Positions 1 through 63,455 are shown, counted from the stretch's first letter. The stretch: DNA of 64,000 nucleotides from Candidatus Babeliales bacterium (GCA_050179755.1 JBFXEV010000001.1:1097994-1161993); one strand, 5' to 3'. The notes: generated by a model from the letters alone, not told the origin. Translations and numbers: made by a program.

Positions 1-1219
1 GTGCATATTTAATCAGGTCTGCTGTGGCAAGCAAAACAACGCTCAGGCAAGTTGAACCTACATAAAATGATCCAGCTGCAGTATAAGCAAGCACATCTTG
101 AACCTTTTCGCTGACAATTGCTTTTTTTATAGTGCCTGTTGCTCTCTGAAAGTGAGTAGGAGTTATTGCATTTTTTATTTTTGTTATTTCTTCTTTACTC
201 AAACGATTGCAGCTTAAATCAATTTTAATATTTTCAATGTTAGAAAACGTACCATTTTCAATTTTTTCAATTTCATTGCTATGTAGTATAAGACCAAAGC
301 CTGCAGGCATCTTTTTGAAGTCAATTCTTCTCAAGTAACGCATTTTATTATTTGCAAGATTAAGGCATTGTAAATTAGGAAAAATGGCAAGTAATTGTGG
401 CAAGTTAACTCTCGTTAATTGATTATCATGCAAATCAAGAAGCGTTACTTCTTGCGGATTAACAACGGATGTAACTTTTTGAATATCAAATAGGCTAGTA
501 AGTCCTTTACCTGCAAGAATAAGTGCTTTATGTTGGCCCTTTAATGTTATATGCCAGTGATTTGGAAGTTTTACCGTGCAATTTGATGTAATATCATCAG
601 TACCTATTATTTCTTGAGCAATTAACTTCTCAATTTGTTTACTATATCGTGCAAATAATTCATAGGTACTCATATCTTCTTTAATATTTTCAACTAGCAA
701 GTTGTAATAATTACAAAGGGCGTGCATGAGAGTTGGTTTTATGGCCAAATATTCTGCGGTGTGTAATAGAGTGCGCGCTGTCTCGGGGCTTTGTAAACTT
801 ATTTCTTTGGGGTTGTGCACGCACTCAAAAAGTACAGTAAGAGTAGGCGCTGTTAAATCAATTGCGGGATTATCGTAAATATCTTTTTGTGTGTTAGGTG
901 TTGCAAATGAGAGTGCGCAATCACGGTGTGTTTTAAATTGCTTTTTTAGTATACTTTTGATGAATTCGCTTTTTTGCGCTAATTTTGGTTCAATTTCAAT
1001 AATTTGGTTGTCTGCGCATTTGATTCGTATGTTTGGATTATCAAATCCAAATGTGGTTGGAACAACGCGAGTACCTATTGCAAATGGATTTTTGCCCTGG
1101 CCATATTTTTTTTCAAATACGCGCTTCAAGGCAGTAAGATTTGGGTGTTGCTCCATAGCTTGTATAATGCCTGTACAAAGCAAAAGAGTACTTATAATGG
1201 CTCGTAATGTTTTTTTCAT
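1..1219 (-). CDS. Exported Skp1/BTB(POZ)-like + leucine-rich-repeat protein, 3' end runs off the window
   Basis: Manual translation (absent from ORF track because no stop in window). GGAG SD precedes ATG 1219. Signal MKKTLRAIISTLLLCTGIIQA-MEQ; IRIKCADNQIIEIEPKLAQKSEFIKSIL is Skp1/POZ-like; LRRs LLDLHDNQL, LQCLNLANNKM, IDLSCNRL. Confidence 0.75.
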   Translation of the reverse strand, partial: MKKTLRAIISTLLLCTGIIQAMEQHPNLTALKRVFEKKYGQGKNPFAIGTRVVPTTFGFDNPNIRIKCADNQIIEIEPKLAQKSEFIKSILKKQFKTHRDCALSFATPNTQKDIYDNPAIDLTAPTLTVLFECVHNPKEISLQSPETARTLLHTAEYLAIKPTLMHALCNYYNLLVENIKEDMSTYELFARYSKQIEKLIAQEIIGTDDITSNCTVKLPNHWHITLKGQHKALILAGKGLTSLFDIQKVTSVVNPQEVTLLDLHDNQLTRVNLPQLLAIFPNLQCLNLANNKMRYLRRIDFKKMPAGFGLILHSNEIEKIENGTFSNIENIKIDLSCNRLSKEEITKIKNAITPTHFQRATGTIKKAIVSEKVQDVLAYTAAGSFYVGSTCLSVVLLATADLIKYA

Positions 1220-1544
1220 AATACTCCTATATGGCTTCTGTAAAACCAAATATTATATTTCTAATTGTATATTAAATTTAATATTTGTCAAGCGGATTTG
1301 GTGGGTTAATAGGCGCATTAATGCAGGCTTGACAAGCAGATTTTAAGCGCAGCGGCTTAAGTTGCTTTTTCTTATAGGTTGCCAGACCTGCTAGAGCAGT
1401 TTAAGAGCCTTTACAAAGGGCATTTTTTGGGCAATACTTAACTATATTTATATCATATAAACCTGTTCCTTCTTTAATCTGAAAGCTGATCTTGGTATTG
1501 ACCCAGGGGGCCTATGGCAGAGGAACTTTCAAAGGATACACACC

Positions 1545-1763
1545 GTGAAAACAGGTATTCACCCAGAATTACATGAAGTGACAATTACATGTGCATGTGG
1601 CAATGCTATTACTACGCGTTCTACCATGAAAGATGTAACCGTGACGCTATGCTCAAAATGCCACCCGTTCTTTACTGGCGAACAAAAGTTTGTAGATACA
1701 GCGGGCCGTATTGAGAAGTTCCAAGCTCGTTATAAAGCACCAGAGACGAAAAAGAAGAAGTAA
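1545..1763 (+). CDS. rpmE: 50S ribosomal protein L31, zinc-binding type
   Basis: MKTGIHP, CACG...CSKCHPFFTG..KFVDTAGRIEKF. Confidence 0.97.
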   Translation: MKTGIHPELHEVTITCACGNAITTRSTMKDVTVTLCSKCHPFFTGEQKFVDTAGRIEKFQARYKAPETKKKK

Positions 1764-1825
1764 CCGTCTCATCTAGCCTTTTGGCTAGCTAATTCGGTCA
1801 AGACTTAATGGAAATGAAACAATAG

Positions 1826-2896
1826 ATGCAGATTGATTGGAGCAGCCTTCAGTCACGATATCAAGCTATTAATGAGCAATTGATGTCTGGCGATATTGAT
1901 AACCGTAAGCGGTCTGAGCTTCAAAGTGAAGCAAAGCACCTCAAGACGTTACTTGATGCACACACGCATATTCAAGAAGTTGAAAAACAACTTTCTGATG
2001 CCCGTGAGCAAGAAGCTCAAGCTGCTGATCCTGAGTATAAAGAGCTATTTACCCAAGAAATTACCGAACTCTCTGATAAATTACAGGTGGCACAAGATGA
2101 ATTAGAATATCTTATTGTGCCTCCTGATATTATGGATGAACGGTCTGTGTTTCTTGAAGTCCGTGCCGGCGCTGGAGGCAAAGAAGCCTCACTATTTGCC
2201 TCTGATTTGGTGCGTATGTATACCAACTATGCAATTGCCAAGGGTTGGCAAGTTGATCTTGCCGATATGAGCAACACAGAGCTTGGGGGCGTGCGAGAAG
2301 CAACGCTTCACATTCAAGGCAAAGGTGCGTATGCGCATTTAAAAAAAGAAGCTGGCGTGCATCGTGTGCAGCGTGTTCCTAAAACGGAAACGCAAGGTAG
2401 AGTGCATACGTCTACAGCAACTATCGCTGTAATGCCTGAAGCAAAAGAAGTAGATATTGATATTAATCCTGCGGATTTGCGCGTTGATACGTACCGGGCA
2501 AGTGGTGCAGGTGGTCAGCACGTAAATAAAACAGATTCTGCCATTCGTATAACACATATTCCTACGGGCGTAGTGGTTGCGTGCCAAGAAGAACGCTCAC
2601 AACATAAAAATAGAGCTAAAGCTCTTAAAATGCTGCAGTCTCGGTTGCTCCAAGCTGAGCGTGAAAAACAAGAAGCTCTAGAGGCAAAGCAACGCAAAGA
2701 CCAAGTAGGGTCTGCCATGCGTTCTGAAAAAGTGCGCACCTATAACTATCCTCAAAATCGCGTGACCGATCATCAGGTTGAATTGACGCTTAATAAGCTT
2801 GATATGATCATGGAAGGTCAGCTTGATGAAATTGTTGCTGCACTTATGCAGCATGAGCGAGAAGAGCGCAAAAGACTTGCTATTGCAAAGGTATAG
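1826..2896 (+). CDS. prfA: Peptide chain release factor 1
   Basis: [12 protein letters not shown] (PxT), [31 protein letters not shown]. Confidence 0.97.
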
Positions 2897-61614: not shown

Positions 61615-61647
61615 ATAGGCAAATAGTTCTTTTGGTGAACTTGCGCG

Positions 61648-62738
61648 TTACAAATTTTTGTTTGCTTCCAGCAAGAGAACGTAAGCTCCTTGATATTCCA
61701 TATCTTTTGCAAACATAAGTGCAGTTTTGCCGGCTGAATTTTTTAGTGTTATATCAGCGTCTGCTTTAAGCAAAGCTTTAACCATTTCTCCCACTACTCT
61801 GGATTTGCCATCGGTGCTATAGGCATGTGTATATTCTTTTTTTCCATCAACTATATGCGTAGTTAGAAGTTGTTCCTTTTTTGTGGCTACTTTTGCATAC
61901 AACGCTGCTTTCATGTGAGCGGTAATGCCGCCATTTGTTGGAGTATTGAAATCAGCACGTGCATCAATAGTAGTCTGACTACTTCTAGATTTTCAGCACT
62001 TGCTGCTATCAATAATGCAGTTCCCGATTCGTCTTCAATACTTGCATCATTGCATAAGTTTTATCAGCTCCTGCTGCAATCAATGCCATTGCAAAGTGGG
62101 GGTTTATTGTTCTGGGCAGCCATCATTAATGCAGTCAATCCAATTGCATTTCTAATATCAGCTTGTGCTTATGTTCTTAGCAGGACTTGTACAACATCAT
62201 GCCGGTCAAAATGGCCTGCATGCATGAGCGGCGTCATGCCGAGTAGTTCTGTTTGGGCGATGTTTGCACCGCCAGTAATGAAAGCTTGTGCTATCTTGCC
62301 ATTAATGCAGTCATGTAGTGCTGTTTGGTTACCGCGTTGACTGTTAGGGTAGTTTACATCAGCACCATGCTCGAGCAACAATTGAACTGCTTCAACGAAG
62401 CCAGATTTCATTCATTCGCTTTTGGCAGCGCATCCAAGCACGGTAAAGCCAAAATAATCAGTAGAGTCTATAGGATAGCAAAGTTTAATAAATTGATATA
62501 AATTGTCTACGCGGTTATGTAATGCTGCATGGAAGAATAAATTTTTTTTAAATTCATATTCGGTTCCCTTGAGGTGGGTTACTGTGGATCCGTTAGGAAA
62601 TCTTAACGTAATATCATGGGGCACTGTTAGTACTTCATATTCATTTTCTTGCATAGCAATTACCTGGAGGCTCATAAATAAAGGATGGCGCCAGCCTTGT
62701 TGCCGTAGGTTAACATATGCTGTAAAGAGAAGATCATG
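61648..62738 (-). pseudogene. Fragmented exported ankyrin-repeat gene
   Basis: Colinear ankyrin fragments (62412-62675, 62169-62411, 61648-61914) separated by in-frame TGA and TAA and by frameshifts; signal peptide broken by a frameshift near 62677. Confidence 0.8.
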
Positions 62739-62921
62739 AAGTAATTATTTGGAAGTAACTCAATGAGCTTGCTCTTAAGCAGGTGTTATTGCGCAAAGTG
62801 CTTAAAAATTATTTTATAGAGTATATTAAAATTGAGTAAAGTCAGATCAGTAACTAGATCATTAATAAGCGTTGAAAAGTCTCATTAAGGTATCTTGGCA
62901 AGCATGAAAGAGGAGGAATTA

Positions 62922-63455
62922 TTACTGCTTCGTAAATGCTGGCATGGGTAATCCCTGAGCACTTTTCTTGAGAATTTTTAGTGTTCTTGCTAAATCGAAG
63001 CATTCTTTATCAATATGGTTGTTCGTAAGCAAGTCATGTATTTTAGTTTCAAGAGCAGAATAGCGTTCTCGCTGCTCCTTTCTTGTTGTTGCTTTACCAG
63101 CTTCAGATAACAGTATAGCTTTCAAGAGTTTGCCAAAAAATTCATCATGCTCTTTGCACGAGGGGCTAGTACATTTTTGCTCATACCAATACGTATCAAA
63201 AATGGTGCCTTTAGAATGACTTCGGTTACAAAGTGGAGCTCCGTTGGCGATTAGCTGAGTAATGATCGCCAGATGCTTTTCCGGGTTAAAAAGTCCTGGC
63301 ATTCTAATACCTGTTAGGGCGTGATAATGGCCAAAAGACATTTCTCTTATGATGGCGTGCAGTAAGCTATCGCCATTGGTGGGTTTTGCAGATTGTTCCA
63401 TGGCTCCAACATATGTATTGAGAGTGAGGGCTATTATAATAAGTAGTTTTTGCAT
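62922..63455 (-). CDS. Exported hypothetical protein with one degenerate ankyrin repeat
   Basis: Signal ...VGA-MEQ; NGDSLLHAII...LIANGA. Confidence 0.7.
   Translation of the reverse strand: MQKLLIIIALTLNTYVGAMEQSAKPTNGDSLLHAIIREMSFGHYHALTGIRMPGLFNPEKHLAIITQLIANGAPLCNRSHSKGTIFDTYWYEQKCTSPSCKEHDEFFGKLLKAILLSEAGKATTRKEQRERYSALETKIHDLLTNNHIDKECFDLARTLKILKKSAQGLPMPAFTKQ

Follow-up and report, generated by a model that had tools for sequence, protein, structure and literature searches.

The DNA analysed here, referred to as the window, is a stretch of 64,000 nucleotides (G000:C1:1097994-1161993) from the single-contig genome (G000; 1.53 Mb, 39% G+C) of a Babeliales/Dependentiae bacterium, and it harbours a series of genes whose products share a common N-terminal layout. 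A typical open reading frame (ORF) of this kind begins with Met followed by Lys, Arg or Gln and a hydrophobic stretch, which ends on a small residue at about position 17-26 and leads directly into a second Met, the junction Met, usually followed by Asp, Glu or Gln. The junction Met is part of a real, genome-wide, selected and class-specific methionine rule at the P1′ position, i.e. the position following the predicted cleavage site of the leader (Met rule). The RuvB protein of the genome shares 88% identity with that of a Candidatus Babeliales bacterium chromosome and 65-74% with those in other Dependentiae/Babeliales records. The initial annotation of the window had listed 16 such N-termini, and all of them were recovered from the sequence at their respective positions (Table 1). 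A basic n-region and a hydrophobic h-region are visible in every example except the degenerate leader at 62675(-). Likewise, the genes that had been named as counter-examples, at 40869(-), 40211(-) and 48411(-) together with the beta-lactamase-like gene, carry leaders resembling signal peptides but lack the Met. The view that the 16 proteins have unrelated folds is overstated: Pfam detects ankyrin repeats in eight of them (one also with a PLA2_B domain), besides one WD40 protein, one protein with leucine-rich repeats (LRR) and five proteins without a match; the broken gene at 62675 was not scanned.

Genes were called with a home-made procedure using a simple codon-usage model, which gave 1337 genes covering 88% of the genome. 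Proteins were regarded as signal peptide-like (SP-like) when a K/R-containing n-region led into 10-30 uncharged residues in a row that included a nine-residue core of strong hydrophobicity. This criterion, which 600 of the 1337 genes pass, is permissive and takes in membrane anchors. Met-junction proteins, in which A, G, S or C precedes the Met, number 176 by a strict rule and 217 of the 1337 genes by a loose rule, about one gene in six; the loose rule asks for a K/R n-region, a hydrophobic core and A/G/S/C-Met within 16 residues and tolerates charge in the c-region. Within the window it flags 15 of 51 genes, among them 13791(+), which resembles a membrane anchor, and 14 of the 16 listed leaders satisfy it. 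The leader at 12720(-) fits by eye and goes unflagged, since no K/R follows the ATG at 12720. Therefore, the pattern described for the 16 proteins is real in the window, yet it is not a property of the window, as it extends through the whole genome.

Table 1. Leaders ending at a junction Met in the window (nucleotide positions counted from its first letter; signal peptides are predicted).
Element	Range	Strand	Sequence	Junction Met	Gene product
Signal peptide and junction Met	1154..1219	(-)	MKKTLRAIISTLLLCTGIIQA	codon 1154-1156	LRR protein (LRR_8); ORF continues beyond the window's left edge
Signal peptide and junction Met	4193..4264	(+)	MQKSIIRIVGVLVVLLSLPKAQA	4262	ankyrin protein, gene end 5761
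Signal peptide and junction Met	7126..7191	(+)	MKKQKVGSICMLLLHVSWNYA	7189	622-aa protein, no Pfam match
Signal peptide and junction Met	9594..9647	(+)	MRKLCILVLLIFGVMHA	9645	ankyrin protein, gene end 10433
Signal peptide and junction Met	10850..10909	(+)	MQKRFLFIVAHTLFFVVRS	10907	ankyrin protein, gene end 12091
Leader and junction Met	12658..12720	(-)	MFVHTLLLSTLIFYACNLIG		ankyrin protein; ORF also reaches an upstream GTG at 12774
Signal peptide and junction Met	12936..13001	(+)	MQKFIFLLLWAQLASVFFGSA	12999	ankyrin protein, gene end 13499
Signal peptide and junction Met	14521..14577	(+)	MKIALVVLMLSVCGSAYS	14575	ankyrin protein, gene end 15225
Signal peptide and junction Met	16027..16083	(+)	MKVLLIVLICSLSCYAYG	16081	127-aa protein, no Pfam match
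Signal peptide and junction Met	24530..24598	(+)	MKTLFLSVLLSSIMLTIQVSKG	24596	245-aa protein, no Pfam match
Signal peptide and junction Met	31076..31132	(+)	MKRFLVCCLLWFVSLSVS	31130	946-aa PLA2_B lysophospholipase-type + ankyrin protein, gene end 33916
Signal peptide and junction Met	42068..42133	(-)	MKLCKLLLATTLLLPITSLFA		194-aa protein, no Pfam match
Signal peptide and junction Met	48548..48622	(+)	MCRKHYFFWVQLFIALLCAYQSFG	48620	ankyrin protein, gene end 49357
Signal peptide and junction Met	60160..60228	(+)	MNAFKQILLILSVFCPALPINS	60226	WD40 beta-propeller protein, gene end 61614; +2 is Thr, atypical
Degenerate 7-residue leader MSLQVIA, then Met-Gln-Glu	62652..62675	(-)			broken ankyrin gene
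Signal peptide and junction Met	63399..63455	(-)	MQKLLIIIALTLNTYVGA		177-aa protein, no Pfam match

Enrichment was measured relative to the first charged residue after the hydrophobic run, an anchor that assumes nothing about Met. The residue directly before this charge is Met in 130 of the 600 SP-like proteins (21.7%), compared with 1.8-5.3% at the neighbouring offsets -8 to -2 and 1.2-4.7% after the charged residue. Among these 130 proteins, which were not filtered on the -1 residue, 111 have A, G, S or C at that position. At sites following a small residue and lying up to 10 residues past the core, Met occurs 6.7-fold over its frequency in mature parts, with Cys next at 2.35-fold. When the same pipeline was applied to 200-kb samples of two outgroups, Met preceded the first charge in 0/35 SP-like proteins of a gammaproteobacterium (G073) and in 0/37 of a Bacteroidota genome (G074). 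The proposed enrichment of Met at +1 over background is borne out by these figures, and the pattern lies far beyond chance.

The leaders have the anatomy of genuine Sec-type signal peptides, with a predicted signal peptidase I (SPI) site directly before Met. In the 176 strict-rule proteins leader length peaks at 19-23 residues, and the -1 residue is A in 52%, G in 17%, S in 16% and C in 15%. Position -3 is mainly occupied by L/A/V/I/T/S, whereas -2 is often aromatic or His (Y/H/L/F). A cut before Met, as the initial annotation had it, fits the -3/-1 rule of SPI: the small -1 residue is present in 111/130 and a fitting -3 residue (A/L/V/I/T/S/G/C) in 158/176. The genome has two Peptidase_S26 (SPI) matches over the cut-off, and SecD is present in the sampled region. 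Three other leader identities were considered and rejected, as their motifs are rare or absent among the 176 leaders. A twin-arginine (Tat) string, RR-x-hydrophobic, occurs in three; a lipobox-like string, as expected for lipoproteins cut by signal peptidase II, is found in eight, +1 being Met and not Cys throughout the set; and a prepilin-like motif is found in none (0/176), the hydrophobic segment preceding the Met. Lipoboxes and type IV prepilin leaders (Gly before the cut, Phe or Met after it, and Glu5) resemble the leaders described here in that the residue after the cut sets the N-terminal signal, and prepilins can begin with Met. However, in type IV prepilins the hydrophobic segment follows the cut, whereas it precedes the cut in Met-junction leaders. 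With classical Sec/SPI signal peptides they share the basic n-region, the hydrophobic core, small residues at -1 and -3, a length of about 19-23 residues and a start led by a Shine-Dalgarno (SD) sequence. The difference lies at +1, which is normally varied; here, Met stands before the first charge in 130/600 proteins, compared with 0/35 and 0/37 in the outgroups.

The residue after the junction Met is constrained as well. Position +2 is D in 30%, E in 22-24%, Q in 8-10% and K in 8% of the Met-junction proteins; taken together, D/E/N/Q account for 118/176 (22% in mature parts). Hydrophobic residues at +2 are scarce (11/176, versus 24% in mature parts), and so are small residues that would permit removal of Met (22/176, versus 39%). 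With so few small residues at +2, the new end would be of the kind from which Met stays unremoved.

The leaders are translated from an upstream SD-led start, and the junction Met is an internal residue. Taking GGAG, GAGG or AGGA 5-16 nt upstream of a start as SD core, we found it at the first start of 110/217 Met-junction genes and of 199/383 other SP-like genes, as opposed to 2/217 junction ATGs and 204/7348 ordinary internal in-frame ATGs. Correspondingly, the nucleotide profile has a purine-rich SD peak before the first start (G 28-51% at -12 to -8), whereas only codon periodicity is seen at the junction ATG. Over 43 nt, the predicted folding energy averages -2.5 kcal/mol for first starts, compared with -6.4 for junction ATGs and -5.9 for internal ones; hence the RNA structure at the junction is unrelaxed and, if anything, tighter than at internal ATGs. 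The junction codon after a small residue is ATG in 111 cases, TTG in two and GTG in two, without TTG or GTG beyond background codon usage, while TTG or GTG serves as true start in 27/176 Met-junction genes. The second residue of proteins that are not exported (K 12%, N 10%, I 9%, S 9%, E 4%) is also unlike the residue after the junction Met. Taken together, the SD count, the unrelaxed RNA and the lack of a GTG/TTG excess refute the notion, raised with the initial annotation, that the Met could be the true start codon. Public gene calls include the leader-bearing version for 5/5 window genes tested and a Met-started version for 1/5, namely the gene at 31076(+). This is a warning to annotators not to take the in-frame ATG behind the leader for the start, as one of five tested genes is also publicly called there.

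The cargo was examined by Pfam in a sample of about 460 kb of the genome including the window, and 69 Met-junction proteins were scanned (64 by the strict rule plus five window proteins added by hand). For comparison, 71 of the 101 remaining SP-like proteins were used, omitting the shortest ones and those window genes that had been scanned before. Ankyrin repeats are present in 28/69 Met-junction proteins and in 2/71 others (Fisher p 1.5e-8), and one of these two reads ...AWP/MDNDN (here and below, a slash marks the junction). A regular expression for ankyrin repeats was dropped as insensitive, since it found 19/217 compared with 28/69 by Pfam. WD40, PLA2_B, methyltransferase and PPIC rotamase domains were matched once each among the Met-junction proteins, and the remainder mostly lack a Pfam match. 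The other SP-like proteins include PBP, amidase_3, an S41 protease, two solute-binding proteins, MreC, DsbD, TolQ, SecD and FtsK, as well as many normally cytosolic enzymes, such as DNA ligase, adenosine deaminase, SurE, MsrAB, PALP and SDR. In a smaller replicate from another family (400 kb of genome G019), ankyrin repeats occur in 5/41 loose-rule Met-junction proteins, and none of the families represented at least twice in the 87 other SP-like proteins is an ankyrin family. The idea that Met marks effector-like rather than envelope proteins thus finds support in the Pfam sample, and the replicate points in this direction as well. The Met is confined to one cargo class, that is, fast-evolving ankyrin, WD40, LRR and orphan proteins, presumed to form the host-interaction set, whereas exported enzymes and envelope proteins do without it. 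As to orphans, the protein encoded at 7126-8994 of the window recovered only itself as homologue among 8000 scored candidates. The broken ankyrin gene at 62412-62675(-) has its stop at 62412, after ...AAKSE, and ankyrin-like sequence goes on in the same frame.

Further proteins of related character were noticed alongside this class. A family of signal-less ankyrin proteins (G001 L078-L081, and G000) begins MQNFS or MQQFS...W..A, so that Sec export does not extend to every ankyrin protein of the genus. Two leader-bearing pretoxin-HINT proteins are encoded at L121:8363-9637(+), corresponding to G000 1208363-1209637, and at L116:13164-14939(+), corresponding to G000 1053164-1054939. In one of them an Ntox37 toxin domain is added at the C-terminus, which gives this protein of an intracellular parasite an architecture like that of polymorphic toxins.

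Conservation was assessed in 800 kb of a 1.87-Mb genome of the same genus (G001), using reciprocal best hits that cover at least 60% of both proteins. Paralogue pairs were dropped in favour of these orthologues, because slips in repeat register confound Met conservation. An orthologue was available for 43 Met-junction proteins; 30 of the partners have a Met junction themselves, eight are otherwise SP-like and five have no signal peptide by the rule. When the partners are aligned, 33/43 pairs have an identical Met column, compared with 21/43 at -1, 20/43 at +2 and 10-22/43 at the remaining flanking positions (-12 to +13). Allowing for a slip of one residue, the junction Met is kept in 34/43 pairs, and in 28/31 where +2 is D/E/Q/N/K/R; one of the three others among these 31 is an alignment failure, as the partner reads ...VC/MEVQ. 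Of the remaining Mets in the mature parts of these proteins, 72/231 are conserved (Fisher p 7e-9 versus the junction Met). Clear exceptions have Met-Pro or Met-hydrophobic in G000 versus Ser, Thr or Val in G001 and may not be true members. Across the pairs, identity amounts to 46% for all mature residues and 36% for leader residues, and the leaders stay open, hydrophobic reading frames in the orthologues. The Met-junction class is the fastest-evolving one, with a median orthologue identity of 43.7% as compared with 60.9% for other SP-like proteins and 75.8% for proteins lacking a signal peptide. Within this class, the junction Met is under purifying selection.

The distribution of the rule was surveyed as the share of SP-like proteins in which Met precedes the first charge. 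All 60 other genomes drawn from the phylum in the search for signal peptidases carried the label of the same order. In addition to the 130/600 (21.7%) of G000 itself (family f1), the share is 36/132 (27%) in the same-genus genome G001, 20/136 (15%) in G019 (family f19) and 10/76 (13%) in G011 (family f11), and it declines to 5/100 (5%) in G055 (family f6), 1/70 (1.4%) in G056 (family f12) and 0/76 (0%) in G013 (family f13). In G055, moreover, the A/G/S/C-Met strings mostly lie inside the leader, e.g. ...S-M-Y-A/A-Q-E. The rule is accordingly lineage-limited: three Babeliales families show it strongly or moderately, three others weakly or not at all, and the two outgroups lack it. In G055 (L144-L153), Gln stands before the first charge in 20/100 SP-like proteins (...A/Q-E or ...A/Q-D), partly owing to one paralogue family, and this might represent an equivalent of the Met rule with Gln.

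None of the candidate determinants tracks this distribution. Peptidase_S26 matches number two in G000, two in G019, one in G011, one in G013 and two in G056. Secretins gave two to three matches in all five genomes tested, and TolC-type OEP matches were obtained in G011 and G056 only, with no match in G000, G019 or G013. In each of these five genomes two secretin genes lie about 4.7 kb apart (C1:499870-505052 in G000), and G056 has a third. An exported GNAT protein, encoded at L117:10798-11397(+), i.e. G000 1070798-1071397, shows weak RimI-like similarity below the cut-off. As a candidate N-terminal acetyltransferase it was rejected, because among the five genomes searched with this query only the same-genus one returned it, which leaves families f19 and f11 unexplained.

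A rule of comparable type is the Q-rule of Bacteroidetes, in which, according to the portions of PMC5837995 and PMC10653852 considered here, Gln occupies +1 of SPI substrates and is cyclised to pyroglutamate; loss of this cyclisation lowers protein abundance, as reported in one part of PMC10653852. As far as those portions describe it, the Q-rule has in common with the Met rule a lineage-specific preference for one P1′ residue of ordinary Sec/SPI leaders in a large share of the exported proteome. The two differ in the residue itself, in cargo (one class, 176-217 of 600 SP-like proteins, as opposed to most SPI substrates, periplasmic ones among them) and in range, which is phylum-wide for the Q-rule and limited to some families of the order for the Met rule. 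Moreover, we know of no modifying enzyme for the Met rule, unlike the glutaminyl cyclase of the Q-rule. The Met rule would be the second lineage-specific P1′ rule after that of Bacteroidetes, and the words 'methionine', 'TM6' and 'Dependentiae' do not occur in the Q-rule paper PMC5837995. Within Dependentiae, the available passages on Babela massiliensis give predicted signal peptides for 79/126 ankyrin proteins (PMC4378268), and those on Chromulinavorax destructans give signal peptides for 44% of coding sequences and 78% of ankyrin proteins (PMC6561590). Judging by these passages, the proteins belong to the same phylum and represent the same cargo as the Met-junction set. A conserved +1 Met goes unmentioned in the passages of the two papers on signal peptides, cleavage, methionine and N-termini (PMC4378268, PMC6561590), and full-text literature searches, with subscription journals and supplements outside their scope, retrieved no published description of the Met rule. 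The idea that the new N-terminus produced by leader processing, and not the leader, carries information on the fate in the host is shared with the PEXEL motif of Plasmodium and the RxLR motif of oomycetes. These are host-targeting motifs of eukaryotic parasites that are acted on by proteases of the endoplasmic reticulum and processed to an acetylated N-terminus. The present case differs in its bacterial producer and the predicted SPI-type cut, and in that the Met rule is known from sequence alone.

As to function, the upstream SD-led start gives rise to a Sec-type leader, which SPI would cut directly before Met, so that the exported protein would begin with Met-Asp or Met-Glu, less often with Met-Gln, Met-Asn or Met-Lys. 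The Met rule would thus be a lineage-specific P1′ rule ('M-rule') that acts after cleavage. A Met-acidic end would amount to a non-removable, eukaryote-like N-terminus, stable towards aminopeptidases and N-end-rule degradation outside the bacterium, and it might be acetylated by host NatB. We infer cleavage exactly before Met, delivery to the host and a role in stability, and consider it most likely, with a probability of roughly 45%, that the rule serves to stabilise the N-terminus of host-directed proteins. Stability is put forward because of the Q-rule precedent, where, in the part of PMC10653852 concerned, the mature N-terminus is stabilised. The 118/176 proteins with D/E/N/Q at +2 fit the idea of NatB acetylation. 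Of the two functions proposed with the initial annotation, a eukaryote-like Met start (NatB, N-end rule) and a sorting tag for a second translocation step, either would agree with the data. In eukaryotes, ends of the Met-Asp/Glu/Asn/Gln type constitute the NatB substrate class and are not the Met-hydrophobic degron.

Several points weigh against this reading. Ala, Ser, Thr and Val are also stabilising, so that stability leaves the choice of Met unexplained, and in Sec substrates the beginning of the mature part is usually acidic in any case. NatB normally works during translation, at the ribosomes of the host, and acetylation of a secreted bacterial protein is not a given. The association with the cargo class is confounded by paralogy, as the ankyrin genes form an expanded family and are not independent events. 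Furthermore, all signal peptides are derived from our heuristic and none from SignalP. Finally, families f12 and f13 manage without the rule and some ankyrin proteins of the genus lack any signal peptide; the rule is therefore not essential for the parasitic lifestyle. A more far-reaching proposal, which we consider conceivable though doubtful, holds that in part of Dependentiae host-delivered effectors bear the Met-acidic end as their dedicated address or licence, which would be read either by a second-step export machine or by the N-terminal machinery of the host (NatB acetylation, N-degron avoidance). If that were true, the effector repertoire of these uncultured parasites could be deduced directly from the genome by one residue.

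Other explanations can be weighed against N-terminal stabilisation. If the Met-acidic end were a sorting tag, a periplasmic or outer-membrane machine would, after Sec export and cleavage, send the tagged subset to the host while untagged proteins remain in the envelope. This model predicts both the confinement to cargo presumed to be host-directed and the purifying selection on a single residue, and the machine could be a secretin-based system, the sole outer-membrane conduit detected in G000 among those searched, with two secretin genes and no TolC-type OEP match. For Babela, PMC4378268 reports a type II system as the sole secretion system detected. Yet secretins are equally present in the f12 and f13 genomes that lack the rule, and signal peptidase copy number does not follow it either, G011 having the rule with one Peptidase_S26 and G056 having no rule with two. 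To our knowledge, type II secretion uses no linear N-terminal signal. In addition, the authors of the Q-rule argue, in a section of PMC5837995, against a sorting role for their rule, and altogether we find a sorting tag rather unlikely. Less credible still is that the Met merely reflects the substrate taste of the lineage's signal peptidase, be it the general enzyme or a dedicated paralogue, and is meaningless after cleavage. Such an enzyme trait would be lineage-limited, as the rule is, and G000 has two Peptidase_S26 matches. However, the same cell exports conserved envelope proteins and enzymes without Met, which shows that the Met is not a general preference of the peptidase, and the copy numbers of G011 and G056 just mentioned also speak against this reading, which we regard as very improbable.

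Two further readings concern the ATG itself. In one of them it serves as a second, internal start, and each gene yields an exported and a signal-less cytoplasmic proteoform. Dual initiation would need just such a conserved in-frame ATG precisely where the leader ends, one public caller did start one of five tested genes there, and alternative-start proteoforms with and without leaders are reportedly discussed for bacteria (PMC13515050). It is nevertheless improbable, as SD cores at the junction are rarer than at ordinary internal ATGs (2/217 versus 204/7348), folding is tight (-6.4 versus -2.5 kcal/mol at true starts), and GTG/TTG show no excess though 15% of true starts use them; besides, the +2 distribution differs from residue 2 of non-exported proteins, and the small residues at -1 and -3 are left unexplained. 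The other takes the ATG for the old start of genes, e.g. eukaryote-derived ankyrin genes, that acquired a leader later on, through upstream extension or fusion, the former start simply persisting without a present function. The prevalence of eukaryote-like repeat proteins and orphans in the cargo agrees with it, as do the signal-less ankyrin proteins of the same genus starting with Met-Gln, and a pattern of ATG only would suit eukaryotic donors. A neutral relic, on the other hand, should decay like its neighbours, whereas the Met is kept in 34/43 pairs with flanks 23-49% identical and other Mets kept in 31%. Since this happens in the fastest-evolving class, a neutral relic is unlikely; the +2 residue is also unlike a normal second residue, and -1 and -3 are tuned to a cleavage site exactly at the Met. 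We give this scenario as little credit as dual initiation, although it may account for the origin of the junction, not for its maintenance. The chance that the leaders are untranslated sequence, an artefact of ORF and start choice, is negligible. The gene caller and the signal-peptide rule are indeed home-made and permissive (600/1337 SP-like), but the peak is sharp and at a single position, SD sequences precede the leaders, the leaders are conserved in orthologues, the outgroups gave 0/35 and 0/37, and public calls carry the leader in 5/5 genes tested.

Dependentiae are widespread, mostly uncultured parasites of protists that export an unusually large part of their proteome. A single conserved residue by which ankyrin and orphan proteins, the fast-evolving class, can be told apart from exported housekeeping proteins is a cheap, sequence-only marker for candidate effectors.

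Beyond the leaders, the window contains two paralogues of the PLA2_B family (eukaryotic cPLA2/lysophospholipase type). The gene at 31076-33916(+) combines a Met junction with C-terminal ankyrin repeats, and that at 46735-48411(-) has an ordinary leader, ...ISA/TIQ. Homologues were found in 29 of 31 genomes searched, part of the matches being to the ankyrin portion only. At 11 other loci the leaders of PLA2_B homologues are mostly without Met, and one has LAG/MSE; as evidence on origin these homologues are uninformative, because homology begins about 250 residues in. A pyruvate phosphate dikinase encoded at 18936-21452(+) of the window has an SP-like N-terminus, MKKSYILCIVVIAAIRTGF, and its homologue in G019 (L097:10315-12789) is likewise SP-like. 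Finally, the 537-aa protein encoded at 51990-53603(-) contains an NCA2 domain (PF08637, E 8.5e-13), a family otherwise tied to the regulation of mitochondrial ATP synthase in eukaryotes.

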